Of a stretch of DNA of 64,000 nucleotides, positions 1 to 43,838 are shown in pieces. The DNA is from Saprospira grandis (GTDB lineage Bacteria > Bacteroidota > Bacteroidia > Chitinophagales > Saprospiraceae): the NCBI RefSeq assembly GCF_027594745.1, contig NZ_CP110854.1, positions 988,241-1,052,240 of the forward strand, read 5' to 3'. The notes beneath the pieces were generated by a model. The model saw only the letters and a list, made by a program, of their open reading frames with translations. It had not been told where the DNA came from and did no database searches. The translations under genes and the position numbers were made by a program. Each line of letters opens with the position of its first letter. Position 1 is the stretch's first letter.

Positions 1-51
1 TGCCAGCGATTTCAGTTGTTTTATGGTTTTTAGCGAACAAAATCGAGATTA

Positions 52-1332
52 TTGGAGACGCAGCAAGCAAAAGCCCCTCTTATTTGGGCCTTAGCGGCTA
101 GTTTGGGCAGTGGATTACTGCTGGCCTTTAGCCTTTCGACATATAGTATTCTATTGACGGCTTTCTTTGCCTTTATTCCTTTGCTTTGGCTTAGTAGAAG
201 GCAGAGCTTTTGGCCTTTTGTAGGCTTTAGTATCTTAAGCAACCTACTTACTTTTGGCCTCTTGGCTCCTCAGGCCATAGAGACTGCAAGCCTGCCTATG
301 GGGCTGTTTTCTTGGGCCTTTGTCAGTCTGTTGTTTAGTATTCCCTGGGCCATGCTTTGGCTGATTCATCATCGGCACAATGCCAAATTGGGCTATTGGG
401 CTTTTGTGAGTAGCTATTTGGCGCTGGAGTGGATGCAAGGGCAGTTTAGTGGACATTGGGCAGGTTGGCAGCTAGGAAGCTTGCCCCTGCTTTTTGGAAA
501 TAGTTGGCAGGCCTTAACGGTTGTGGGTACCGGGGGCGCTAGTTTATGGATCCTCAGTCTGAATATTCAGTGGTTTCGCTTTCTATTTCCGGCCCAAGCC
601 AAAAGTAGAAAAGGCGCTATTTGGGCCGGCATTCCTTTGGTCCTCCTTCCCTTTGTCCTCAGTTTGTTTATGGGGGCAGTGCAAAAGGGAGATTCGGGCA
701 GTTTTGTTTATCAGTCTAGCTACAAGAGCCAAAAGGGCCGCTTACTGCTAGGCCAAGCCCCCAAAGAAGAGATTCCAGAAAATGCCCTTTATGCCCAAGA
801 AAAGCCTTTAAATGGTTGGGCCTATTTGGCCGGACAAGATAGTTTGGGTAGCCTTCGGTTTTGGCAAAAAGGAGAGCGGCAGCCACTGAGTAGCCAAGCC
901 TTTTCTGTTCGGACCATTTTGGGGGTAGAGCAGCGCTTTTTTCAGTTTATCGATTGGCAGGGCTCTCGCCTACTCCTGCTCAATGCCCATAGCCTAAAAC
1001 GCACGGCCCCTATCCGAGAGGGCCTACAAAAAGGAGCACAAACCGTTATTGCCTTTAGTCCAGACAGCAGTTTATCGCCAGTTTTATACCGCTCGGCTAG
1101 GGCCCGTGCCCAAGAGAGTGGCAGCGATATTATTTTGGTCCAAAAAAAGAAAGCTCATCATTTTTCGGCCAATGGCGACTACCAAGCCCTAGAAGATGGC
1201 CAAACCTGCAGCCCTAAAATATGGTCCCCTACATTTTTTGCCCAATATGGCGATTTGCCTGGGCGATTGTCTATCTTTTTGGCGGCCTGGTTGGCTCTAG
1301 CCAGCATTGTCAAACCCTTCCGTAAAAAATAA
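52..1332 (+). CDS. Polytopic membrane protein. The N-terminal TM region resembles apolipoprotein N-acyltransferase (Lnt), but no clear CN-hydrolase catalytic motifs are seen.
   Basis: The 426-aa ORF begins with a TTG start and has multiple hydrophobic helices (LIWALAASLGSGLLLAFSL..FFAFIPLLWLS), as in Lnt N-termini. The C-terminal part is not recognisably a nitrilase fold. Confidence 0.45.
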   Translation: METQQAKAPLIWALAASLGSGLLLAFSLSTYSILLTAFFAFIPLLWLSRRQSFWPFVGFSILSNLLTFGLLAPQAIETASLPMGLFSWAFVSLLFSIPWAMLWLIHHRHNAKLGYWAFVSSYLALEWMQGQFSGHWAGWQLGSLPLLFGNSWQALTVVGTGGASLWILSLNIQWFRFLFPAQAKSRKGAIWAGIPLVLLPFVLSLFMGAVQKGDSGSFVYQSSYKSQKGRLLLGQAPKEEIPENALYAQEKPLNGWAYLAGQDSLGSLRFWQKGERQPLSSQAFSVRTILGVEQRFFQFIDWQGSRLLLLNAHSLKRTAPIREGLQKGAQTVIAFSPDSSLSPVLYRSARARAQESGSDIILVQKKKAHHFSANGDYQALEDGQTCSPKIWSPTFFAQYGDLPGRLSIFLAAWLALASIVKPFRKK

Positions 1333-1340
1333 TTTAGCTC

Positions 1341-2075
1341 ATGAGTATGAAAAATGAAGATATAGAACTCGAACAGGAGGTCCTTCAAGCAGAATATATG
1401 CAGGCTCAGCAACCTGCGCTTTTGGTCCTTTTGGCCCAAGGTATTTCTATTGTTTTCCACCCTTTTCTGATTTTGCTCTACGCCTTTGTCCTTTTGGCCT
1501 ATTGCAATCCCTTTTTGTTTCGGGTGAGTAGCTTTGCCGCCGTTTTCGAGAATAAGGTCAATAGTATGCTCTTTATTTGGTTGGCCATTTTCTCTTTTGC
1601 GGTCCCTCTGCTCACGGTTCTCATGATGCGGGCCCTCAATTTTGTCTCTTCCCTACAGATGCCTGGCCGCATGGAACGCATCGGCCCCTATATTGTGGTG
1701 GGCCTTTTATATATGGTCATTTTTGTCAATTTTAAAAATAATCCCGGCGTCCCTCTAGAACTAACGGCCTTTGCTTTGGGCAGTACGATTGCGCTGTTCA
1801 TCTCTTTTTTCTTCAATCTATTTAGCAAAATTAGTGTGCATACTACGGGCATGGGCGGCCTAGTGGCCATGACCCTACTTGCCGTGAGCAGAAGCTATGA
1901 TGGCCAGGGCTACTTGTTAGTTTGGGTGGTTTTACTGGCTGGTCTGGTGGGTACGGCCCGTCTGCTCCTCGGCGCCCATAAAACCAAGGAGGTTTATGGC
2001 GGCTATGCCTCTGGCTTTATGGGCCAAATGATCGCCTTTAATTATTTGTTTGCCACTGCTGCCGAACAGATGTAG
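1341..2075 (+). CDS. Integral membrane protein, possibly PAP2-like phosphatase
   Basis: The 244-aa protein has several TM helices. Weak PAP2-like motifs are present (SVHTTGMGG; RLLLGAHKTKE). It lies immediately downstream of the Lnt-like gene. Confidence 0.45.
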   Translation: MSMKNEDIELEQEVLQAEYMQAQQPALLVLLAQGISIVFHPFLILLYAFVLLAYCNPFLFRVSSFAAVFENKVNSMLFIWLAIFSFAVPLLTVLMMRALNFVSSLQMPGRMERIGPYIVVGLLYMVIFVNFKNNPGVPLELTAFALGSTIALFISFFFNLFSKISVHTTGMGGLVAMTLLAVSRSYDGQGYLLVWVVLLAGLVGTARLLLGAHKTKEVYGGYASGFMGQMIAFNYLFATAAEQM

Positions 2076-2087
2076 AGGGGAGCTCTG

Positions 2088-2340
2088 CTGTTTTGGGGCC
2101 TCCTGCCTACGGCAGGCGCTACGTTTCGCAGCTCGCAGGTCTGCTCGGCCCTTCGGCGCAAAGCGCCTCGGTCTGGCCTTCGGCCACTGCTGCACATCGC
2201 TAGGCCAGTCCTCCCTTCGGTCGTCCTCTAGCGCCTCTTTAAGGCTGCTTATTACAGCTCGCTGTTTGCCTTAAATTCCTTTGCTCGGCCTTAATAACTG
2301 CTGCACATCGGTTACTCCCTTTGGTCGTCCTCTAAGGCCC
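2088..2340. repeat. GC-rich composite intergenic hairpin repeat, family copy
   Basis: Contains the shared modules ttttggggcc, gcgctacgtttcgcagctcgc, gtctggccttcggccac and tgctgcacatcgctaggcc. Boundaries are approximate. Confidence 0.7.
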
Positions 2341-2365
2341 TAAACAAGCTGTACTTTTGGACCAA

Positions 2366-2410
2366 CAAAAAGCCCCCGCAGTCAGAGACTGCGGGGGCTT
2401 CCTTTTTGCC
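2366..2410. terminator. Bidirectional rho-independent terminator
   Basis: A perfect 13-bp GC-rich stem (agcccccgcagtc/gactgcgggggct) is flanked by A-runs and T-runs on both strands. It sits between the convergent genes ending at 2075 (+) and 2420 (-). Confidence 0.65.
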
Positions 2411-2419
2411 TTGACTAAC

Positions 2420-3984
2420 TTACCAAAGGCTCCACCATTGCTCCTCATCCTTTTGCTGAGGATCTATGGGGGTTAAGCTTTCTGCCAAACCAGAGCTGCC
2501 CAAATCTACGGCATTTGCTTCTGTTGTGGCTTGTTGTTTTTGGGCCTCATAAGCATATTTTTTGCGGCTAGGCTGAGCAAAATAGGCCTTCCAGGCTTGC
2601 TTGTTTTCTTCCTTGGCCAAAATGCGATCTACTTGCTCACAGAGCGCTTGGCCCTTCTCGGCCTGTACCATACGAACATAGTTCGCAAAACCCTTAATGC
2701 TGGCCAAAATAAATCCTTGGCCCCATTCTGCGGCTTGATAGCCTTTAGTTTCTATGGTATGCAAACAAGCTCTAAATTTCTTCAATGTTTTGCGGTCTAC
2801 AGCCACTTGCTCATTTACGGTAAGGCCCGTTACCTCTTGGCGGCGGCCCTTGCGCATAATCTTGAGCTTTTTGGGGTGAATCACAAAGCCTTCATCTTGA
2901 ATAATCTGCTGGGCCTGCCAAATTATACGGCTAATATTGCTCGTATCATTAGCCGAAAAACTCAGGTCATCGGCATAGCGGCTATAGGTCCAACCTAACT
3001 TTTTGGCTACCCCCTCAAAACGGCGGTCCATGCGGCGGCAAAGCCAGTTGGTAATCGCTGGACTAGTAGGTGCGCCCTGTGGCAAATAGCGCTCTCCCTT
3101 TTGGGCATAATACAACTGTCCGTCAATTTCTACTTGGTCCACCTCGGGCTCTGTAGTTAATAAGGCAAAGATAATAGACTGCTGCTCGGAGTAGCCCAAG
3201 CCCTTAAACATCCCCTTCACTCGAGGATAGGTTACGGTAGGAAAAAAGTCTTTGAGGTCCATATTGATGACCAGCTCTTTTTTCTCATGCAGTTTAGCAT
3301 TACTGACAATAGAGCGCTCTGGCACAAAGCCATGAGCCGCTTCATGCATCTCTAAGCGAGCAAGTACATTCTCTAAGAGCCAGTATTGGGCATTTTTAAG
3401 CATAGGGCGAGGGGCTGAAATCAGGCGTTTCCCTCCTGTTTTCTTGGCCAAATAAAAGCGCTCATAATGCGATACCGTAGAGAGCTTCCGCTGGAAACAA
3501 AGATAGCGCAAACGGCCCACAGAAATCTCCATAGCCTCTGCCAGCTCTTTAATATCTTTAAATGCAGGCAGATTTAAAGCCGCTAATTTTGCTAGATCAG
3601 CTTCTTCTTCACTCAAGCCAGCAGAATAGTCTTTACCCAAAAAGACAATACTCCGTTCTTTCTTTTCTTGCCAAGCCTTAGCGCGGGCTTCTTTCTCTGC
3701 CTTACGGCGCTCCTTGGTCTCCTCTCGGCGAGCCAAGGCATTCGCCATGCGTTTTTTACGCATTTCGGCCAGCATGCGCTCCTTATCTCGGAACATGCGT
3801 TGCTTCTCCATCAGCTCACGCAGCTCTCTTCGGAGAGCGCCCTTCTTTTGGATAATCTCCTCAGAGATTTTTGGAGCCTCTTCAGTGGTATCCCAAAAGC
3901 CGAGGCGTTTCATTTCTTCTAAGATATATTCCTCTTTAGAAGTTTGGCGGATACGGTCATAAATCTGTTGACGGGTCATTCTGT
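2420..3984 (-). CDS. Retron-type reverse transcriptase with an N-terminal K/E/R-rich coiled-coil extension of about 130 aa and a C-terminal extension
   Basis: The RT domain carries the YxxFxxxKKxGGxRxIxxP opening (ERFYLAKKTGGKRLISAPRP), NAxxH (SNAKLH), QGAPTSP, YADD (SRYADDLSF) and the retron-typical VTG motif (RRQEVTGLTV). I place the start at ATG 3984 (MSDHRMTRQQ). The 641-aa ORF to 4345 begins at a TTG and runs through a perfect palindrome, so I treat the upstream part as non-coding. Confidence 0.85.
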
Positions 3985-4348
3985 GGTCAGACATAGGGCG
4001 CAGATTGAGACAAAAAAAAACTACTTTCAATTTGGGAGAACTAAGGCCAAAGCCCAGTTGATCCAAAATTGAAAGTAGCTGCAAAAGAAAAAAGAAGGAG
4101 AGAAGATTTACTTCGTACAATCTTAGAACTAAGAGAATCAACTCCAGCGAACTGCCGTAGGTGCCCCTACTACGTTCCCTACAGAGTCTACGACTCGAAA
4201 CCGCGTAGGGGACGTAGTAGGGGCACCTACGGCAGTTCGCATCATAAAGATTCTTCCTTAGTGAACAGTGAAGAGTAATATCGCTTGAACGCCGAAACAG
4301 CGCTCTTTTTGCAAGACTTTGTCTTCTCTTGATCCTTCTTTTCAATAT
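3985..4348 (-). ncRNA. Candidate structured non-coding RNA leader of the RT, msr/msd-like
   Basis: There is a perfect 29-bp inverted repeat (4147-4175 / 4212-4240; gcgaactgccgtaggtgcccctactacgt) that extends to about 35 bp (ccctac/gtaggg). A second 13-bp stem-loop (4021-4033 / 4066-4078) is followed by a T9 run on the RT strand. An AT-rich promoter-like region lies at 4350-4450. The region is on the same strand as the RT and immediately 5' of it. Confidence 0.4.
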
Positions 4349-4477
4349 CTATATAGAGATGCTTGTCATCCCCATTTGTCTGTTACAATTATAGATATTC
4401 TTTAGCAGCTTGTCAAGTTTTTATTTAAATTTTTTCAAAAAATTATCAAAATAGTGAAGCTTTGGTCCTTTTTGCGG

Positions 4478-4621
4478 TAGACAGGCGGCGAAGCCGCCGC
4501 AGGCCTAGCGATGTGAAAGGGGGCGGCGAAGCCGCAGACCAAGGCCGTCAGGCCGCAGGGCCGAGCGAATAGCGAGCCCTGAAACGTAGCGCCTGCCGAA
4601 GGCAGGAGGCCCCAAAAAAAA
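4478..4621. repeat. GC-rich composite intergenic hairpin repeat
   Basis: Contains ggcggcgaagccgccgcagg, gcagggccgagcgaatagcgagcc, gaaacgtagcgcctgccgaaggcagg and ggccccaaaaaaaa. Confidence 0.7.
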
Positions 4622-4624
4622 TCG

Positions 4625-6292
4625 CTAGATCAGTTTTCCAGTTTTGCGATTATGAGCCATACGAGTAGCTAGGATATGTTCGCAGGGGCCTTTGCGCAAT
4701 TTATTCATTTGAAAATGGTTGCAATTGCATTCGGCTTGGACCATGCGGTCATCGGCATCGATGAGGAGTTGGCATTGGTAATTGCGCTGTTGTCCTTTGA
4801 TCTGTGCCGATAGTCGAGTTTGGCCATTTTGCTGCGACTCTGCCGATAAATTGCTGAGGCGGTTTTGGTCCAAAATCTTGTTGGCTTTTTCCTCCTGTGG
4901 CGAGGCAAAGCGGAGCAATTTCATATCGAGTGGTTCCCGATGCAATTCCCGCAGGCGGTAAACGCCTAGAGTAGGATCAAAAATCACTCGGCCCGCTTGG
5001 GTATAGGCTTGCAAGGAAGCGCTGACGATATCCGTACCTAACTCTAGGCGTTCGGCCAAGCTATCTACCGACTCGAAATAAGTGCTTTTGAGGGCCTCAA
5101 AAACGGTTTGTTTAGTCCAATCGTCTACCTCTAAGCGAGGGGCGAGCAGATCAAAATTGCCCGCTCTAGACCAATCGTTATCGGTCCAGCCAGAAAGACC
5201 CAAAGTAAAGACCATATCTCCCTCTAGTTGGGCCTCATAAAAAGAAGGCAAACCAGAGCCGAGGAAGCTAACCGTAAATTTTTTGGCTTGTGGAATCAGG
5301 CGCTCCAAGATGAGCAAACGGCGGCGGCCCCAAATGCGGACCTCCTCTGCTTTTGGCCCATGATAAATAGAGCGGCGACAGATAATTTCTTTATTCCAAG
5401 GTTCTACCAGCACTTTAACGGGCTGCCCGGGGCGAAGCTGAAAGCGCAAAGAACGAGGGCCATGCGTTTCCTTAAAGCGGCGTAAAAGCTGGCAAATGCT
5501 ATGAATGTCCATGGGATGCAAATCAAAGCGAATGAGTGGCATCGTCATGGCAGAGCTCACTTGGAGGAAGCCGCGGACCCAGCTTTCGGGTAGGTCAATT
5601 TTGACCTCCTTATATAAATCTTGGTCCTCTGTTTGGATTTCAAAGCCAGAAGGATCTACCCGAAAATCGGTTTCCTTATAATTCCGAATCTTTTGAAACT
5701 CATTATAAAGGGCTGCAGAGTAATCAATATTGGTTGTTCCGCAAGAAAACTCATCAATATTCTTAAAGACATTATAGCCACAGCTAAGCTTACCATAAGT
5801 AGATTCATCTTGGCTAAAGCACTCAAAGAAAATGCTATCGGGATGGGTCGTGATGACGGGATCTAGGACGATCCAAGCATCAAAATCCTTTTTATAGAGG
5901 TAATTAAAATACTCTCTTTGTTTTTTGTAGAAATGCTGCATTACGCCTCGTTCCTGCTCTTCTACCCCAGCCAATTCTACCGAAATATCTTCGATACGTT
6001 GTTTAATATTGGCCTCATCTCCAGCAATTTCGCCAAGGTATTGGGCCAACCAAACCTCTTCCTGCTCCTTGGCCCAGGCCAAATAGGCAGATTTATCACG
6101 AGGTTTGAAGCGAAGATCAGAAACCACTACGGCATTCAAGGCAGAGATGGCTTCTCTAAAGGCAATTTTCTTATGCAATTGGCCCACAAAAAAAGTAGGC
6201 TCGCGCAAACTATCGGGGGCAAAGGACATGGCCGTTTGCCCAGCTTTATTCTTCACAGAGGAAGTTCCTCCATACTTATAATTAAATAACAT
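4625..6292 (-). CDS. SWIM zinc-finger domain protein, YehQ-like
   Basis: The 555-aa protein has a C-terminal CxCx(n)CxH signature (CNCNHFQMNKLRKGPCEHILA). Only 11 bp separate it from the upstream WGR gene, suggesting an operon. Confidence 0.7.
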   Translation of the reverse strand: MLFNYKYGGTSSVKNKAGQTAMSFAPDSLREPTFFVGQLHKKIAFREAISALNAVVVSDLRFKPRDKSAYLAWAKEQEEVWLAQYLGEIAGDEANIKQRIEDISVELAGVEEQERGVMQHFYKKQREYFNYLYKKDFDAWIVLDPVITTHPDSIFFECFSQDESTYGKLSCGYNVFKNIDEFSCGTTNIDYSAALYNEFQKIRNYKETDFRVDPSGFEIQTEDQDLYKEVKIDLPESWVRGFLQVSSAMTMPLIRFDLHPMDIHSICQLLRRFKETHGPRSLRFQLRPGQPVKVLVEPWNKEIICRRSIYHGPKAEEVRIWGRRRLLILERLIPQAKKFTVSFLGSGLPSFYEAQLEGDMVFTLGLSGWTDNDWSRAGNFDLLAPRLEVDDWTKQTVFEALKSTYFESVDSLAERLELGTDIVSASLQAYTQAGRVIFDPTLGVYRLRELHREPLDMKLLRFASPQEEKANKILDQNRLSNLSAESQQNGQTRLSAQIKGQQRNYQCQLLIDADDRMVQAECNCNHFQMNKLRKGPCEHILATRMAHNRKTGKLI

Positions 6293-6303
6293 ATTGAGCT
6301 AGA

Positions 6304-9300
6304 CTAAGATTGAGTGGGATAATCATGAATCGCAATAGGCTGTTCGAGCAAGGGGTATTGGTCCTGCAAATCGCGTAGCACAATAACGGCCTGCTCCTTA
6401 TCGCCAATAGCTGCAGTGGCCGAGATAAAAGTGGCTAAATCAGAGAGGAATTGCGCTACTTCAAAAGAAGCTTTGGCCTCTTTGGCTAAAAAGCTCCAGA
6501 TGCGATCTTTGGCCATTCGGCCCTTGTTCACTTGGGCCAAAACCGTATAAAAATAATCGCGTAGCGATAGAATCCGCTCGGGATGTCCAGCCCCAAAGCG
6601 CTCCAAATAATTGGTTGCATACAGTTGTAGTTCTGGACGGGGGTGCTGACTCAATTGCTCCAAGTACATGGGGCCATCCTCTTCCTCAAAGAAACGAGTA
6701 ATGAGTTGGCGACCAAACTGCTGTACATCCTGGCGAACCGAATCGCAGATGCCCACCATCAGACTAGGGTTCCAATCATCAGCGGTATAGCTTTGGCCAA
6801 AGAAATCAAAGGCAAATTGTCGAGAATCGGCCCAATCTACATCTAGTAGACGCAAAGCCTCTTCTCTTTCGTAGCGCATACGATCTTTTTGTTCCTTAAA
6901 CATTTTCCAAGCGAGCTCGCGAACGGCTACAATTTCATGATTGGCCAGACGAACGGTATTCGCAACAGAAAGCGATTCATAAGGGATATAGCGATCAATT
7001 AAGACTGCGGCCAACTCTTGTGCGGGAGCATATTTTGCATTGAGCAGGCGGAAAATAAACTTCCGGTCTACCTCTGCCAAATGGCCCTCTAATTCGCTAG
7101 TTAAGATATCTGCAAAGAGCGCGTGCAAGCCCTCAATTTTTTCTTTGCGGATCAGTTTACGCAAGAGCGCTTGCATTTGCGCCACCGCAAAAGCTTGGTT
7201 TTGGGCATAGAGTGGGGCCAAAACTTCACGGCTGGCCAAGCGTACATCCTCTTCAGGATGCTCTAAAAGGCCCAAAAGAAAGTCGCCTTCTTGCAAGAGC
7301 TTCTGCTCTGAAGAGTGGCGGAGAAGTTCTAAGCCATAGCGCCAATAATCGGCTGTTTTGCCAAAGAGGTATTGAATATCTTCAAAGGGAATTTGTGTAG
7401 CGTCTGCTGCATGCCCCTTAAGCAAATGCAAACCGAAGGCTTGTTGCTGAGCCAAAGGCAAGCGTAAAAACTTCCCGATTAAATCTAGGCTGAGTTGTTG
7501 GGTTTCCTTGACAAAGTAGCGCTTCAGTAAGGACTCCACCTCTCTCATTAGGACCTGTTGATCTTGGCCCGAGCGGAGCAAGAAGCCCAGCAAACGGCCC
7601 AAGAGTGCTTGACGCTTGGCAGGTTCATAAACCTCCACGATACGTCCTAAGGCCTCTTGTGCCCAATTTCTCAAATCTTTGCGTTGGTGCAATAAAAGGC
7701 TATAGACCAAATCTAGATCGGCAAAGTAGTCAAAGAAGTCAGCTTCTAGCCAAGCCAAAGCCTGCTCTCTAGCCTTTGCATAATCATGGTCCAAAAGGTA
7801 AAGCAGGATAGCCGTAGGCTTGCCTGATTTTTCATAATTGGCCACAATTTCTTGCAGGGCCCAAGTTTGTAGGGGCTGATAAGAACGGCTCAGCAACTGT
7901 TTCCAGTAAGACAAGCCCAGTCGTTTTTGTAAGCTCTTGGCCTCGGGATGGGCCATAAATGCCGTATGGGCAAACTCTAGAACCTTTTGGCTTTTGGCCT
8001 CGGCCATCAAATGCAGAAAGGCCTTGGGCTCCTGCCGCCAAAGGTCGGCATATTTAGTTTCTGAAAAGGGGGCTGGCAAGGGCATATCTGGATCATAATG
8101 TTTGCCGTAAACCCATTCCTGTTTCATAGAAGAATAAACATATCGCTGACTATTGGCATAAAGAATCTCGTTAAAGATCAGCTCCTTAGAATAGCTAGGA
8201 TAATGATATACGCTGGCGATCCAGCGCTGTTTCTTATTATCAAATCGCCAGTTCTTTTCTCGGCGATCTGTGCGGCCATCTCGGCTATCATCATATTGAA
8301 GGAGGAGACTTGTGGCCATAGCGACATAAGCGATATCTCCCTTTTGTCCCAATTGGTCCAACTCTTTACGCATATAATCGCTAAAGTAGTCCTTAGTCAA
8401 ATTGGAGAAGGCCAGACGGCTATTTTCTTTGGTCAACTCATCTTTGGGCCGCATACGGTTATAGCTTACCCAAACATATTGATTATTTCTGCGGGGCATT
8501 CTATACTGCGGGCTCGCTTTTTCAAAGCGGTAGGCCAAGGCGCCCCAAAACTGTGCATCCTTGCGAAAGGTCGCCATTTTAAAGAGGCGACTCAGCAAAC
8601 GGAAGCTATTGGGTCGGAACTCCATTTCGCAAATGACCTCTACTAATGTCTTGCGACAATAGGGCATGGCCGGAGACAATAAATAAAGCATAGCAAATGC
8701 TTGCTCCATACTTTTATCTCCCTTGGCCTTGCGTAGCTGATAGGCCAAAGCATCATTATCTTTACGATCCAAGGCCTTTTGCCAGAGTTCAGGGAGTTTG
8801 GGCAGTTCCTCTTCAAGCAAAGCCTGTTGTCCAGCGGCATCGGCTAGTTCCCAATAGACAAAGGGCGCTAGTTTTTTAGCCGTAGGCGCTTTTTTCTTGC
8901 TTCGCCAAAAAGTTAATAAGTTGCTGGGGTCCTCTACTGCGGTATCGAGTTGAGCCGTAGCCCAAAGTAGGCTATAGAGCTCCATATCGTCTATAGATTT
9001 GCCTCTATGGTTTTGCTCAAAAAGGGCCCAGCAATAGGGTCCAGCCGCTTTGATGTTAAGACTAGCGGCACGCCAAGCGACCCTAGACAGCTTCCAGTTG
9101 CGGGCCTTTTGGGCCGCTGGATCTAGTTGAGCGAGCTGTAAATGGTAGAGGATCCAGGCCGCCTGAGCTTCTGCTCCTTGCAGGGATTTATCTGGGGGCT
9201 GAATAGCCGCCACTTGCTTGGCCTGACTCTTTTCAGATACATCCAAATAGCCCTTTTTCATTTTATCCTGTAGCAATTTATTGTACAGACTGCGGGCCTT

Positions 9301-9480
9301 GGTTTCATCTACAGGCGTGGGCGTTTTGCTGCCCTCTCTTAAAGGGCCGCCCGTTTTTCCATAACGGAAATTAACTAGAAAGGCCCCTGCTTCCAATTCG
9401 CAAAGGTCTACTTCATATACTTTATCAGAATTGCCCTGCTTAAAATGCAGGCGCTTTTGTTCTATTAGCTTCATCGGCAA
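6304..9480 (-). CDS. WGR-domain / DUF4132-like large protein of the MolR/YehI family
   Basis: The 1058-aa protein has an N-terminal WGR domain (KVYEVDL..FLVNFRYGKTGG..ARSLYNKLLQDKMKKGYLDV) followed by a long alpha-helical body typical of DUF4132/MolR-like proteins. Confidence 0.7.
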   Translation of the reverse strand: MPMKLIEQKRLHFKQGNSDKVYEVDLCELEAGAFLVNFRYGKTGGPLREGSKTPTPVDETKARSLYNKLLQDKMKKGYLDVSEKSQAKQVAAIQPPDKSLQGAEAQAAWILYHLQLAQLDPAAQKARNWKLSRVAWRAASLNIKAAGPYCWALFEQNHRGKSIDDMELYSLLWATAQLDTAVEDPSNLLTFWRSKKKAPTAKKLAPFVYWELADAAGQQALLEEELPKLPELWQKALDRKDNDALAYQLRKAKGDKSMEQAFAMLYLLSPAMPYCRKTLVEVICEMEFRPNSFRLLSRLFKMATFRKDAQFWGALAYRFEKASPQYRMPRRNNQYVWVSYNRMRPKDELTKENSRLAFSNLTKDYFSDYMRKELDQLGQKGDIAYVAMATSLLLQYDDSRDGRTDRREKNWRFDNKKQRWIASVYHYPSYSKELIFNEILYANSQRYVYSSMKQEWVYGKHYDPDMPLPAPFSETKYADLWRQEPKAFLHLMAEAKSQKVLEFAHTAFMAHPEAKSLQKRLGLSYWKQLLSRSYQPLQTWALQEIVANYEKSGKPTAILLYLLDHDYAKAREQALAWLEADFFDYFADLDLVYSLLLHQRKDLRNWAQEALGRIVEVYEPAKRQALLGRLLGFLLRSGQDQQVLMREVESLLKRYFVKETQQLSLDLIGKFLRLPLAQQQAFGLHLLKGHAADATQIPFEDIQYLFGKTADYWRYGLELLRHSSEQKLLQEGDFLLGLLEHPEEDVRLASREVLAPLYAQNQAFAVAQMQALLRKLIRKEKIEGLHALFADILTSELEGHLAEVDRKFIFRLLNAKYAPAQELAAVLIDRYIPYESLSVANTVRLANHEIVAVRELAWKMFKEQKDRMRYEREEALRLLDVDWADSRQFAFDFFGQSYTADDWNPSLMVGICDSVRQDVQQFGRQLITRFFEEEDGPMYLEQLSQHPRPELQLYATNYLERFGAGHPERILSLRDYFYTVLAQVNKGRMAKDRIWSFLAKEAKASFEVAQFLSDLATFISATAAIGDKEQAVIVLRDLQDQYPLLEQPIAIHDYPTQS

Positions 9481-9713
9481 AAGGATAAAATGGGCTTTTT
9501 AGGGCCTTGGTCTTAATTTGTAGCTCATATTATCGCTTTTTGATGACATTAGCGAGTTTTTTAAGCAAAAAAAGGGGATTTTTTCTTACTGCTTAGAAAA
9601 AGAAAGGCAAAAAATCGAAAGGCTGCTATATTTAGCTTCTAAGCGCCTATAGTTAAACTGTAGTAGGGTCGGTCCAGAAAAAAAAGATAGTACATTCTAG
9701 ATACGCCCGGAGG

Positions 9714-10030
9714 AGTTTTGCATTTGCAAATTAGCTCTGAACAACTGTATAGAGCTGTTTTGCATTTGCAGATTAGCTCCGGGGATTCCCCAGAGCTGTT
9801 TTGCAGTTGCAGATTAGCTCTGAACAACTGTATAGAGCCGTTCTGCAGTTGCAGATTAGCTCTGAACAACTGTATAGAGCTGTTCTGCAGTTGCAGATTA
9901 GCTCCGGGGATTCCCCAGAGCCGTTTTGCAGTTGCAGATTGCCTCTGAACAACTGTATAGAGCCGTTTTGCAGTTGCAGATTAGCTCTGGGGATTCCCTA
10001 GGGCCGTTTGTAAGCTGCAGCAGTGCCCTA
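9714..10030. repeat. Tandem array of about 7.5 units with a period of about 42 bp: a 23-bp core plus two alternating 19-bp inserts
   Basis: The core gttttgcagttgcagattagctc alternates with tgaacaactgtatagagcy or cggggattccccagagcy. The inserts are not unique, so this is not a CRISPR array. Confidence 0.8.
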
Positions 10031-10094
10031 AGCTCTGGTTTTTGGCCTATTTGTGGCTGAAGAGCTAGGCGATACGGTTGTTTCTCTCTAAAAA

Positions 10095-10362
10095 AACCGC
10101 CAACAGCTCCCCTGAGGGATTCCTTAGGGAATCCCGAGGAGGGGCGGGTGGGCGGGGTCGTGAAAACGAATGAGGAGCGCAGCGACGAATACCGCTTTTT
10201 GCGAAGGCCCGCAGGGCCGCTGAGGGCCCAGCGCTGCGGAGTGGGTGGCCGAAGGCCAGACCGAAGCAGGCGAAGCCTGCGCAGGGCCGAGCGAGCAGCG
10301 AGCCCCGCAGCATAGCGGCGGCCGCCCGCCCTTTTTGGGGCGGCCGCGGGCCCCAAAAACAT
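10095..10362. repeat. GC-rich composite intergenic hairpin repeat
   Basis: Contains the agggattccttagggaatccc palindrome, gtggccgaaggccagaccgaagc, gcagggccgagcgagcagcgagcc and ggccccaaaaac. Confidence 0.7.
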
Positions 10363-10463
10363 AAAAATCAAAATAAACTTTCCTTTAAATCATAACAGAA
10401 TGCCCGCATCCCTTTGACGATTCTGTATCTTAGGAGCTCATTCAGCAAAACAAACCATCGCTT

Positions 10464-11696
10464 ATGCGTCAACTTATTTCATGGGCCTTTGTCCTGGCCC
10501 TACCGGCTTGTCTTTGGAGCCAAGACCTTGGTCAAGAACTGCAAAAACTAGAAGCCCAAAAGCAAAGCCTAGACGAACAAAAAGCCGCCCTTATTGAGCA
10601 AATTGAAAGCGTCCGCCTACAGAAGATTCGAGCCGACTTGAAAAAAGTAGGTTTGCCAAAAAATGGCGTAGCAGGGGAACTGGTAGAGCATGCCGCCATG
10701 ATTCTGAACTATTCCGAGGCCCATGAACAGGCCGCTTGGGTGGCCCATATTATTCCGCCTGCCATGATGGAAGGCAACCTGAGCCGAACCAATGACTTTA
10801 GAGCAGATGAGCTAGTCAGTACAGGAACGGCGGTAAAAGCCGACTACTGGTATAGTGGTTATGACCGTGGGCATTTGGCCCCTTCTGCGGATTTCCGCTG
10901 GTCCAAAACAGCCATTAGTGAGTCCTATTATTACTCTAACATGAGCCCCCAATTGCCCGAATTTAACCGAGAGGGCTGGGCCGATTTGGAGCGCTGGGTC
11001 CGAGGCGCTGTCTTTTCTCACAAACGCTCTATGTTGGTCATTACTGGCCCTATTTTGAAAGAGGGCTTGCCGCAAATTACGCAAGGCCCCAATAAAGTGA
11101 GCATTCCCGAAGCCTTTTTCAAGGTGGTTTTGGACCTAGAGGCCGAGCAGCCCAAGGCTATCGGTTTTATCATGAAAAATGGCAGCTGCAACAACCCCAC
11201 AATCAGCTATGCCGTCTCGGTAGATGAGGTAGAGGCCCAAACGGGCTTAGATTTCTTTAGCAATTTGCCCGAAGAGGAAGAAAAACGCCTAGAAGCCATG
11301 AAGGACCCTTCTAGCTGGGAAAAAACGACGGAAGGTCGCTTGGCCGATGTTCCTCCCCTCAGCAATGAGGAATTGCCCAAAGATTGTATCAGCACCGCCG
11401 ATGCCCCCGTCTTTATGAACCAAAAAGCCTGCGTTTGCGGCACGGTCGTATCCACCAAGAAAACCAAGTCGGGCTCTGTCTTTATCAATCTGGACACAAA
11501 ATTTCCCAACCAGATTTTTTCCGTAACCATCTGGGGCAAGGACATCAAGCATTTTTCTTATTCGCCAGAGACGGAACTCTATGGCAAGCAAATTTGTGTA
11601 AAGGGGAAAATTACAGATTATAAAGGGACCCCAACCATGAATATCACTCATGAAAAGAAGGTGGAATTTATGGAGGAGATGCCAGATAAGAAGTAG
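10464..11696 (+). CDS. Secreted DNA/RNA non-specific endonuclease (Serratia NucA family) with a C-terminal extra domain
   Basis: A signal peptide is present, and the DRGHLAP active-site motif with the ..NMSPQ..FN motif (N of the catalytic Mg site) is seen. 410 aa. Confidence 0.85.
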   Translation: MRQLISWAFVLALPACLWSQDLGQELQKLEAQKQSLDEQKAALIEQIESVRLQKIRADLKKVGLPKNGVAGELVEHAAMILNYSEAHEQAAWVAHIIPPAMMEGNLSRTNDFRADELVSTGTAVKADYWYSGYDRGHLAPSADFRWSKTAISESYYYSNMSPQLPEFNREGWADLERWVRGAVFSHKRSMLVITGPILKEGLPQITQGPNKVSIPEAFFKVVLDLEAEQPKAIGFIMKNGSCNNPTISYAVSVDEVEAQTGLDFFSNLPEEEEKRLEAMKDPSSWEKTTEGRLADVPPLSNEELPKDCISTADAPVFMNQKACVCGTVVSTKKTKSGSVFINLDTKFPNQIFSVTIWGKDIKHFSYSPETELYGKQICVKGKITDYKGTPTMNITHEKKVEFMEEMPDKK

Positions 11697-11697
11697 G

Positions 11698-11872
11698 ATT
11701 TGGGGCTGCCCCTCGCCTATCGGCTCGGGTCGGGCCATTGCGCAGCTCGCTACTCGCTCGGCCCTGCAGGCTTTTTCGCTTCGCTACAAAAGCCTTTGGT
11801 CTGCCGCCTTCGGCGGCCCTGCTACAGCCCCTCAGCCTGCGGCCCTTCGGGCCTGTCCCATCCAAAAAAATC
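11698..11872. repeat. GC-rich composite intergenic hairpin repeat
   Basis: Contains ttggggctgcccctcgc, cgcagctcgctactcgctcggccctgcagg and cgccttcggcggccctgc. Confidence 0.65.
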
Positions 11873-11882
11873 AATCCATCGC

Positions 11883-12689
11883 ATGAATTACCAAGAACAA
11901 TTTGCGGCCAATAAGGCTGTTTGGGAGCAAAGAGCGGCTTTGCATCCAGAAACTGAGTTTTATCAGCAAGATGCTTTTATGCAAGGGCAAACGAGTCTGC
12001 AGTCTATAGAGCTCTCCTTATTGGAGGCCGACTTATCGGGCAAAAGAGTCTTGCACCTACAATGTCATTTTGGGCAAGATAGTCTGTCTTTGGCCCGTAT
12101 GGGCGCAGAAGTCGTGGGCCTAGACCTCTCCGAAACCGCCATTGCCAAGGCCCAAAGCCTAGCCAAAGCGCTCAATCTCAATGCCCGTTTTTACCAAGGC
12201 AATGTACTAGACGCTCAAGAGATTTTGGCCCAAGAAGCCCCCTTTGATCTCATCTTTTGTTCTTATGGGGTCGTCTATTGGCTGCCCGATCTGCTGCAAT
12301 GGGGCCAAGAAATAGGGCCCTTACTCAAAAAAAGCGGAGAATTTATGCTGGTCGAGTTTCACCCTATCGTCTGGATGTTTGATGACAACTTTAGCTATAT
12401 CCAATATAGCTACTTTGACCAAGGTGCTATTGAAACCGAAGAGGAGGGCAGCTATGCCAAGCGAGAAGCCGAGATCTCAGGAAAATCTTATGGCTGGAAC
12501 CACAGCCTTTCCGAAATGACCGCTGCCTTAACCGAAGGCGCAGGCTGGCAACTCAGTTACCTCAAAGAATATAAGTTTTCGCCTTACAATTGCTTTAATA
12601 ATACCGTAGCTCACCCCAAAGGCTATCAAATCAAAGGCCTAGAGGATAAAATCCCTATGGTGTTTGCTTTGGGGGCCAAACGGCCCTAG
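11883..12689 (+). CDS. Class I SAM-dependent methyltransferase
   Basis: The motif-I region VLHLQCHFGQDSLSLARMGAEVVGLDLSE is present. I place the ATG at 11883 because the longer ORF from 11700 runs through the repeat element. Confidence 0.8.
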   Translation: MNYQEQFAANKAVWEQRAALHPETEFYQQDAFMQGQTSLQSIELSLLEADLSGKRVLHLQCHFGQDSLSLARMGAEVVGLDLSETAIAKAQSLAKALNLNARFYQGNVLDAQEILAQEAPFDLIFCSYGVVYWLPDLLQWGQEIGPLLKKSGEFMLVEFHPIVWMFDDNFSYIQYSYFDQGAIETEEEGSYAKREAEISGKSYGWNHSLSEMTAALTEGAGWQLSYLKEYKFSPYNCFNNTVAHPKGYQIKGLEDKIPMVFALGAKRP

Positions 12690-23004: not shown

Positions 23005-23230
23005 ATTGGCCTAGCGATGTGCAGCAGTGCGGCGAAGCCGCAGACCCAGGCGGCGAAGCCGCCGCAGGGCCGAGCAGACCTGCGAGCTGCGAAACGTAGC
23101 GCCTGCCGTAGGCAGGAGGCCCCAAAACAGCAGCGAGCTGCGGAACGACAACAAGGACTTTAGTCCGCAGTTCGACGACCGAAGGGAGTAACCGCCGACG
23201 ACCGAAGGGAGGCGGAGGCCCCAAAACAGC
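23005..23230. repeat. GC-rich composite intergenic hairpin repeat
   Basis: Contains cctagcgatgtgcagcagtgcggcgaagccgcagacc, gcagggccgagcagacctgcgagctgcgaaacgtagcgcctgccgtaggcaggaggccccaaaacagc. It is nearly identical to the copy at 58058..58250. Confidence 0.75.
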
Positions 23231-43689: not shown

Positions 43690-43838
43690 TCTAGAGGCGG
43701 CGAAGCCGCCGGCTGAGGGGCTGTAGCAGGGCCGCCAAAGGCGGCAGACCCAGGCGGCGAAGCCGCCGCAGGGCCGAGCAGACCTGCGAGCTGCGCAATG
43801 GCCCGACCCGAGCGAAGCGAGTGGGCAGCCCCAAAAAA
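43690..43838. repeat. GC-rich composite intergenic hairpin repeat
   Basis: Contains ggcggcgaagccgccggctgaggggctgtagcagggccgccaaaggcggcagacccagg and gcagggccgagcagacctgcgagctgcgcaatggcccgacccgagcgaagcg. It is nearly identical to the copy at 54043..54190. Confidence 0.75.

Follow-up and report, generated by a model that had tools for sequence, protein, structure and literature searches.

What kind of system surrounds a reverse transcriptase (RT) gene that follows a long, highly structured leader in Saprospira grandis, and does the enzyme work alone? The gene lies in a stretch of 64,000 nucleotides (nt) of contig NZ_CP110854.1, hereafter the window. A first-pass annotation of this DNA had proposed a retron-type RT whose effector was either built into its own extra domains or encoded upstream. 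The second of these options stood: a SWIM zinc-finger protein and a WGR and HEAT/ARM-repeat protein are encoded upstream on the same strand, and nothing that we found supported a stand-alone RT with effector domains of its own. We conclude with high confidence that the locus is a complete type XIII retron, of the family of Mx162, Mx65, Sa163 and Ne144, ordered as WGR/HEAT gene, SWIM gene, msr-msd non-coding RNA (ncRNA) and RT and probably operating along the lines proposed below. Read along the minus strand, a gene of 1058 amino acids (aa; 9480-6304) is followed by a 555-aa gene (6292-4625), a 630-nt gap, the 524-aa RT (3994-2420) and a terminator, beyond which, as had been noted before, the genes are convergent. 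The protein-coding part of the module and its end are as follows.

6304-9480, minus strand: WGR and HEAT/ARM-repeat protein, 1058 aa, first gene of the module; start at TTG 9480, or possibly at an ATG two codons in.
4625-6292, minus strand: SWIM zinc-finger protein, 555 aa (SWIM_XIII), directly upstream of the ncRNA.
2420-3994, minus strand: type XIII RT, 524 aa, with the RT_XIII profile, RVT_1, retron motifs and a retron-RT fold.
2366-2404, both strands: G+C-rich, bidirectional intrinsic terminator closing the retron module; stem 2370-2400 with 14 pairs (10 G-C), T-runs on both strands, convergent genes beyond.

Profile searches against PADLOC assigned all three genes to the same type. The RT was matched by RT_XIII over residues 2-491 (3.8e-188, 624 bits; the runner-up profile reached 1.5e-92 and 309 bits), the 4625-6292 gene by SWIM_XIII (9.1e-232), and the 6304-9480 gene by WGR_XIII over residues 3-1056 (E=0) and additionally by HEAT-ARM_XIII (1.6e-24). 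Pfam placed RVT_1 in the RT, a C-terminal SWIM finger in the second protein, and an N-terminal WGR domain (aa 11-83) plus weak HEAT matches in the third; NCBIfam has no type XIII model and gives the SWIM and WGR proteins no name. Type XIII, which includes Mx162, Mx65, Sa163 and Ne144, has been defined by three components, namely an RT of clade 10, a protein of cluster 114 that combines a DEDE motif and winged helix with a SWIM motif (CxCx12CxH), and a cluster-216 protein with WGR plus HEAT/ARM, the last of which precedes many, not all, members (Mestre 2020, PMC7736814). The window contains each of these elements: the RT profile, a SWIM-type partner bearing the motifs Dx7Dx4Ex32Dx38E and, at its C terminus, CxCx12CxH, and the WGR plus HEAT/ARM partner. 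One relative, 54% identical to the RT, is annotated as RT-Ne144. The locus has in common with Mxa1 (Mx162), Mxa2 (Mx65), Sau1 (Sa163) and Nex2 (Ne144) the full-length type-specific RT profile, N-terminal extension included, and the same two partner families; unlike the Myxococcota hosts of this comparison, its host belongs to the Bacteroidota (Saprospiraceae). It adds a member to an already classified type and is no new kind of system. The Mx162/Ne144 family comprises the first retrons ever found, and Mx162 dates to 1984.

The RT itself carries intact retron motifs, as these were defined in PMC7736814: NAKLH at aa 232-236, YADD at aa 340-343 and VTG at aa 388-390. The first-pass annotation had picked out all three (the first as SNAKLH) and had read NAxxH and VTG as evidence for a retron RT rather than a group II intron or diversity-generating retroelement (DGR) RT, a call that both the RT_XIII score and the predicted structure uphold. 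In an AlphaFold2 (AF2) model with a predicted local distance difference test (pLDDT) score of 84, an N-terminal helical module (aa 8-30) and a ~70-residue helix (aa 43-114) precede the core (aa ~134-475), and a disordered tail (aa 478-524) follows. Foldseek searches with this model returned retron RTs as all of the best 18 folds; group II, DRT9, DGR and DRT2 RTs came ~10 orders of magnitude lower. The nearest solved protein in a PDB sequence search is the RT of Ec86 (2.5e-38, over core residues 133-420 only). Ec86 (Eco1, type II-A3) is also the closest solved RT by fold (TM score 0.80) and has the same retron motifs, but its RT, at 320 aa, lacks the N-terminal helical extension and the WW tail of the Saprospira protein.

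These two additions had been called atypical for a retron. Their presence is confirmed, their oddity is not: the N-terminal extension and the WW-ended tail are hallmarks of type XIII. The extension spans ~130 aa, with E, R and K making up 43% of residues 1-135; it is not atypical, since RT_XIII covers it from residue 2 and family-invariant residues (R8, L25, M28, G32, W34, P41, L75, R82, T93 and W108) run through it. The tail is otherwise variable and closes with a near-invariant W520/W521 pair (WW; residues 518-524 correspond to window positions 2420-2440), which looks like a short docking peptide.

Because the RT follows a structured RNA, we also considered an ncRNA-templated RT of the defense-associated RT (DRT)/unknown group (UG) class, which would make DRT2-like rolling-circle cDNA or a DRT9-like homopolymer instead of msDNA (multicopy single-stranded DNA). 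DRT2 and DRT9 (UG2 and UG28) resemble the locus in having promoter, structured ncRNA and RT on one strand, and here, too, the ncRNA upstream of the RT has its own promoter. The NCBIfam equivalogs Drt2 (1.3e-07, 31 bits against a 390-bit cut-off) and Drt3a (7.6e-04, 19 bits against 200) match weakly, and DRT9 and DRT2 appear among the distant fold neighbours (Foldseek ~1e-10 to 1e-12). Retron profiles, however, score better by ~100-180 orders of magnitude, all 18 of the best fold neighbours are retron RTs, and NAxxH and VTG are in place. In addition, the ncRNA described below has the retron layout of a1/a2, msr hairpin and long msd stem, which DRT2 and DRT9 lack, as they lack such partner genes. 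A DRT-type enzyme is therefore very improbable. Sorting the RT by type-specific profiles, a check that the first-pass annotation had itself proposed, gave type XIII, with the group II and DRT models far below their cut-offs.

What, then, occupies the gap upstream of the RT? An msr-msd ncRNA makes up the leader; it has a1/a2 arms, one msr hairpin and a long msd stem, and covariation establishes its fold. Its parts, in transcript order, are these.

4322-4343, minus strand: a1, 5′ half of the inverted repeat that closes the ncRNA; corresponds to inverted repeats I3 and I5, base-pairs with a2 in the minimum-free-energy (MFE) fold and covaries.
4311-4317, minus strand: conserved AAAG..CUUGC box directly 3′ of a1; among the loci examined, the units of Bacteroidota and Desulfonema contain CUUGC.
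4287-4305, minus strand: msr hairpin GAGCGCUG-UUU-CGGCGUUC, of the RT-recognition type (helix 2).
4107-4265, minus strand: msd, template of a predicted msDNA of ~140-160 nt (helices 3-7), with putative ends.
4088-4106, minus strand: a2, 3′ partner of a1 in this repeat, supported by the same inverted repeats, MFE fold and covariation as a1.

We aligned the ncRNA of 16 Bacteroidota loci over 306 columns, obtained a consensus of 65 pairs in 7 helices, and compared it with slid controls in which the pairing partners were shifted by 1-3 columns. In the consensus, 94.6% of cells pair, against 38-45% in the slid controls, and compensatory change occurs in 35/65 pairs, against 8-14. None of 500 shuffles matched the observed value on four of five measures, and 2/500 did so on the fifth. 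By helix, compensatory changes affect 5/11 pairs of helix 1 (a1/a2), two of the eight pairs of helix 2 (the msr hairpin, 100% paired; UA to CG and AU to CG) and 28/46 pairs of helices 3-7 (msd). Folded as RNA, the leader (4380-4005) reaches -168.8 kcal/mol against -96.5 +/- 5.0 for shuffled sequence (z = -14.5); folded as DNA, the predicted msDNA (plus strand 4108-4265, from a ~158-nt template) reaches -53.2 kcal/mol (z = -14.1). The earlier description of ~360 nt of structured, non-coding, msr/msd-like leader is borne out by this fold and by covariation in homologs, and the search for a1/a2 repeats and conserved hairpins that it had recommended turned up both, with compensatory changes across the 16 loci.

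The palindrome that had first drawn attention, described as perfect over 29 bp, is the core of the msd upper stem. Its arms extend to 36 nt (4240-4205 and 4182-4147, 22 nt apart), are complementary at 35/36 positions (97%), and are topped by an apical mini-hairpin, GAGUC-GUA-GACUC. Below it, conserved boxes on either side of the palindrome form the msd lower stem, in which CACUAA..AAUC pairs with GAUU..UUAGU. The invariant msd boxes are AAUCUUUA (4252-4245) before the upper stem and UGGAGUUGAUU (4146-4136) after it; a further invariant box, UACGAAG (4117-4111; (G/U)ACGAAG across loci), precedes a2. Like CUUGC, these boxes are single-stranded and border the helices. Two conserved G residues lie 5-10 nt 3′ of a1, namely G4317 in AAAG and G4312 in the invariant CUUGC, and by the classical position beside the 5′ repeat both are candidate branching or priming guanosines.

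An alternative would be that the leader is translated, the RT being a 554-aa or 641-aa protein and the hairpins coding sequence. The frame is indeed open from TTG 4345 to ATG 3994 without an in-frame stop, the list of open reading frames (ORFs) gives 641 aa, and NCBI annotates 554 aa. Homologous RTs, however, align starting at residues 1-6 of the 524-aa form, and the RT_XIII profile begins at residue 2; a hairpin and a U9 run fall within the putative extension; and the leaders of homologs are wholly different in sequence yet keep their base pairs. Since the homologs begin where the 524-aa RT begins and the leader evolves by base-pair compensation and not as a protein, we read it as non-coding, and a translated leader is highly unlikely.

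Could the RT instead belong to a mobile element, as a group II intron maturase or otherwise, with the palindrome as a terminal repeat, a terminator or a repetitive extragenic palindromic (REP) element? A group II RT profile, TIGR04416, does match weakly (5.3e-18), at 65 bits far under its 300-bit cut-off, and GC-rich REP-like hairpins lie nearby. Against this, group II RTs are much more distant by sequence and fold, and Rfam found no intron in window positions 1-12000; it found no retron ncRNA there either, and its only matches on the palindrome were spurious microRNAs. The palindrome differs in sequence from the REP-like repeat; its arm sequence is unique in the window, with none expected by chance, and the palindrome belongs to a multi-helix RNA that covaries and is kept with the RT across phyla. 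We give a mobile-element origin next to no credence.

The type XIII retron reading is also consistent with what the ncRNA has in common with its relatives. Its position beside the RT and its layout of a1/a2, msr hairpin and long msd stem are those of type XIII retrons, and the predicted Saprospira msDNA falls within the size range of the msDNAs of Ne144, Mx162 and Sa163. Between SWIM gene and RT, a hairpin with a 22-36-bp stem stands at the matching position in 15/15 related Bacteroidota loci, and the stem sequences are unrelated. The published table models type XIII ncRNAs for Firmicutes, Mx162, Mx65 and Ne144 only (PMC7736814). Compared with these, the Bacteroidota ncRNA has invariant boxes of its own (AAUCUUUA and UGGAGUUGAUU). 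Three boxes (CUUGC, GAGUUGA and GUACGAAG) are common to it and the Desulfonema type XIII ncRNA, which supports one ncRNA family across phyla. Two features set Saprospira apart from known type XIII members: a single msr hairpin, the second one of Chitinophagaceae being missing from Saprospira in the alignment, and a terminator-like hairpin between ncRNA and RT. No further ncRNA copies were found within the 64-kb window, which holds a single unit.

Three relatives carry tandem arrays of complete units of this kind. In an Aureispira sp. metagenome-assembled genome (L019; JAAEPD010000470.1, 1-1101), at least four ncRNA units precede one RT (1102-2649), the fourth being cut by the contig end. The array periods are 286, 274 and 256 nt, and each hairpin (231-324, 505-598 and 761-854) pairs 35-nt arms at 97-100% complementarity; beneath a conserved apical loop, the arm sequences change from one hairpin to the next. 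A second array, on a metagenomic scaffold (L023; ENA ERZ28657087 scaffold_38, 6540-7880), comprises five tandem units with distinct 25-26-bp stems, one of them degenerate (84% stem, mutated box), before an RT at 8001-9545; a terminator (7919-7955, followed by T6) separates array and RT, and no WGR or SWIM gene was found within the 17.5 kb examined. In Desulfonema ishimotonii (L018; BEXT01000001.1, 6479-6980), two units with a period of 273 nt separate the SWIM gene from the RT; their scaffolds are 89-91% identical, but their stem cores are replaced on both arms (GCCTACCGGGGCCC versus GACTACTATGTGGC). Within arrays, scaffolds are mostly 72-95% identical and stem arms mostly 25-38% (62-71% in a few unit pairs), the stem changes are compensated on both arms, and the apical loop is conserved, also between Aureispira and the window. 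Judged by these sequences, the msd stem is hypervariable and cassette-like, set on a conserved scaffold.

A pattern scan of metagenomes with the two msd boxes gave at least 120 matches, a figure that says little about array frequency; among the matches listed, seven loci had a real hairpin, and all seven were single-unit. As the window has one unit and seven further metagenomic loci are likewise single, arrays appear to be the minority state. A search for a spacer-like origin of the msd stem gave no match in 50,697 phage records. The three arrays resemble the engineered 'multitron' ncRNA arrays built for multiplexed editing (PMC10370050), but they are natural, and each of their units has a different msd stem; Saprospira has a single unit in the window. 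The literature that we searched contained engineered arrays only, with no natural ncRNA array among them.

How the ncRNA and the RT might be expressed is indicated by further elements around them.

4416-4388, minus strand: ncRNA promoter TTGACA-17-TATAAT, sigma70-type, 12/12 consensus.
4012-4078, minus strand: terminator/attenuator-like hairpin followed by U9, between a2 and the RT ATG.
4480-4620, no strand assigned: cluster of GC-rich hairpin repeats of REP-like type (GGCGGCGAAGCCGCC), after the SWIM stop codon and ahead of the ncRNA promoter, in direct-repeat families D1 and D2.

The AT-rich, promoter-like stretch noticed at 4350-4450 contains this promoter, with TTGACA at 4416-4411, a 17-nt spacer and TATAAT at 4393-4388 (in DSM 2844 the -10 element is TATCAT), and transcription would start at ~4381. 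A perfect 10-nt inverted repeat (AATATCTATA / TATAGATATT; 4344-4399, minus strand) overlaps the -10 element and the transcript start and may serve as an operator or form a hairpin in the 5′ leader. The second stem-loop, at 4021-4078, is stronger than the 13 bp first claimed for it: its 17-nt arms (4021-4037 and 4062-4078) are 94% complementary, and T9 follows at 4012-4020. A simple terminator scan omits this hairpin, because the loop exceeds the size limit of the scan. A hairpin with T6-T9 occurs at the equivalent position in 7/7 Saprospiraceae-type loci and is absent from two Chitinophagaceae loci checked; its stem base (GCUACUUUC/GAAAGUAGC) is common to the window and to loci L020 and L021. 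The element is most simply read as an intrinsic terminator or attenuator, which would end most ncRNA transcripts and limit read-through into the RT. The REP-like repeat GGCGGCGAAGCCGCC is present in 14 copies in 64 kb, against 0.2 by chance, often in intergenic clusters (4480-4620 and 12 other sites, for example 23028-23063, 43696-43767, 58123 and 62292). It is a dispersed genomic family outside the retron, and the cluster beside the SWIM gene may insulate or terminate the upstream operon.

We next turn to the partner proteins. The SWIM protein is predicted to consist of a helical N terminus, a PCNA-like double domain (~aa 145-370, with limits placed from the secondary-structure pattern), a winged helix and the SWIM finger. 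Two independent methods, Foldseek being one, predict a clamp-like fold with no recognisable nuclease, and the best 50 Foldseek matches of the model were only PCNA and clamps (E ~1e-8); as the quality of the model is moderate, we treat the clamp fold as a prediction and not as a result. Mestre et al. proposed a DEDE transposase as the ancestor of the SWIM protein and grouped type XIII with the nuclease-associated retrons (PMC7736814), whereas the structure predicted here does not show such a fold. PDB sequence searches gave nothing meaningful for the SWIM or WGR protein and found no solved structure for any of the three type XIII proteins. Pfam at relaxed thresholds, applied to sub-fragments of all three, added nothing beyond SWIM, WGR and HEAT, and neither Pfam nor fold comparison revealed a recognisable toxin or enzyme domain in either partner. 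Taken together, the predicted clamp fold, the WGR domain and the ~950-residue HEAT/ARM solenoid point to both partners as possible binders of DNA structure and of protein. Across phyla, identity is ~60% for SWIM (Bacteroidota versus Desulfobacterota), ~50% for the RT and ~30% for WGR/HEAT. The logic resembles that of Ec86, an RT-ncRNA-msDNA particle with a separately encoded partner, in Saprospira predicted from sequence. The Ec86 effector, however, is a nucleoside deoxyribosyltransferase-like toxin encoded beside the RT, while the Saprospira partners are a SWIM protein with a predicted clamp-like fold and a 1058-aa WGR/HEAT protein without a known enzymatic domain.

The order WGR-SWIM-gap-RT is kept in 15 Bacteroidota loci (Saprospira, Chitinophaga, Flavisolibacter and Terrimonas), and the same gene order recurs in Vibrio nigripulchritudo and Desulfonema ishimotonii. 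A relative of the RT with 47% identity occurs in Trichodesmium erythraeum IMS101 (L013; NC_008312.1:3341565-3358950), where neither a WGR/SWIM gene nor any of the ncRNA boxes of Bacteroidota was found and the 1 kb upstream showed no long hairpin; this RT may be type XIII-like but divergent, or may have no partners. In two Saprospiraceae-type loci (L020:1-2439 and L022:1-1211), the same genes, for a type IA topoisomerase and a DUF4442 protein, lie upstream of the retron module, which suggests that the module has kept its place in the chromosome and been inherited vertically within that clade. In the window, ~1 kb past the WGR gene, the plus strand encodes a DNA/RNA non-specific endonuclease (Endonuclease_NS, 10464-11696, 1.8e-50) and a SAM-dependent methyltransferase (11700-12689); as these neighbours are not common to related loci, they are probably unrelated to the retron.

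From these elements, we propose the following mechanism. The sigma70-type promoter at 4416-4388 would drive an ncRNA of ~370 nt, most transcripts stopping at the hairpin-U9 element (4078-4012) and the remainder reading through to yield the RT mRNA. With most transcripts ending there and read-through alone feeding the RT, template RNA would be made in excess of enzyme. In the fold that covariation shows, pairing of a1 (4343-4322) with a2 (4106-4088) exposes one msr hairpin and the long msd stem. By analogy with characterised retrons, whose biochemistry (2′-OH-primed synthesis and branched msDNA) is summarised in PMC7736814, the RT would bind the msr side, prime from the 2′-OH of G4317 or G4312 and copy the msd from ~4107 towards ~4245-4265, giving a branched msDNA of ~140-160 nt with a 36-bp near-perfect DNA hairpin at its core. 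The SWIM and WGR/HEAT partners may read or hold the msDNA-RT particle, with the N-terminal helix and the WW of the RT as likely docking elements. As in other retrons, the assembly would probably guard against phage, a disturbance of the msDNA altering the activity of the partners.

On this analogy, phage defence is the most likely role, at limited confidence. Several points weigh against the retron and its defence role as we present them. The msDNA is predicted from sequence, in Saprospira as in any Bacteroidota member of the type XIII family; the branching G and the limits of the msDNA are putative, as are the points where transcription starts and, at U9, ends; and the SWIM model is moderate (pLDDT 63, and 45-57 in the first clamp-like domain), which leaves the clamp assignment provisional. 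The argument for defence is one of analogy, the flanking genes form no obvious defence island, the SWIM partner is unusually conserved, and some relatives consist of RT and ncRNA with no WGR or SWIM gene in the flanks examined. Type XIII RTs were not found on viral contigs, which gave only distant retron RTs matching the core alone. Mestre et al. also report a correlation of the type with 16S, partly vertical inheritance and possible domestication (PMC7736814).

A different view can be taken of this type XIII retron. Its msDNA system would have been inherited vertically and domesticated for a task in the cell, such as DNA metabolism or regulation, and its partners would bind DNA structure instead of acting as toxins. 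In favour of this view are the 16S correlation and the remark on possible domestication (PMC7736814), the ~60% identity of SWIM between Bacteroidota and Desulfobacterota, the lack of a recognisable toxin or enzyme domain in either partner, the topoisomerase and DUF4442 neighbours common to two loci, and the lack of type XIII RTs in viral contigs, together with window neighbours that are not obviously defence genes. The conserved SWIM, the housekeeping neighbours, the absence from viral contigs and the 16S correlation all fit the suggestion of partial domestication by Mestre et al. Conversely, all retron types tested so far reportedly act in phage defence; the hypervariable msd stem on its conserved scaffold resembles the signature of an arms race; PADLOC lists the trio as a defence system; and the family is spread patchily over many phyla. 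A purely cellular role is a serious but minority possibility, and we retain phage defence by a type XIII retron as the preferred reading.

The finding is mostly confirmatory: the type has been classified since 2020, and full-length PADLOC matches identify each of the three genes. What it adds is an explicit, covariation-backed model of the Bacteroidota ncRNA, with coordinates for promoter, a1/a2, candidate branching G, msd and terminator. Our literature searches on type XIII function, on the retron census, on SWIM, WGR and clamp proteins and on msDNA in Flexibacter returned no relevant experimental or functional study, and the Saprospira locus offers a clean, compact example of the retron type with the oldest history and the least known mechanism. 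The natural ncRNA arrays of its relatives could serve retron-based multiplex editing. More speculatively, and we put this forward as a tentative idea only, the type XIII partners may be DNA-structure readers of the paired msDNA stem, unlike the partners in the toxin-antitoxin retrons solved so far; the core of the stem would then be a swapped specificity cassette, sometimes multiplied into natural 'multitrons' of 2-5 units, and Saprospira would represent the single-unit form of a system whose output is set by the stems present.

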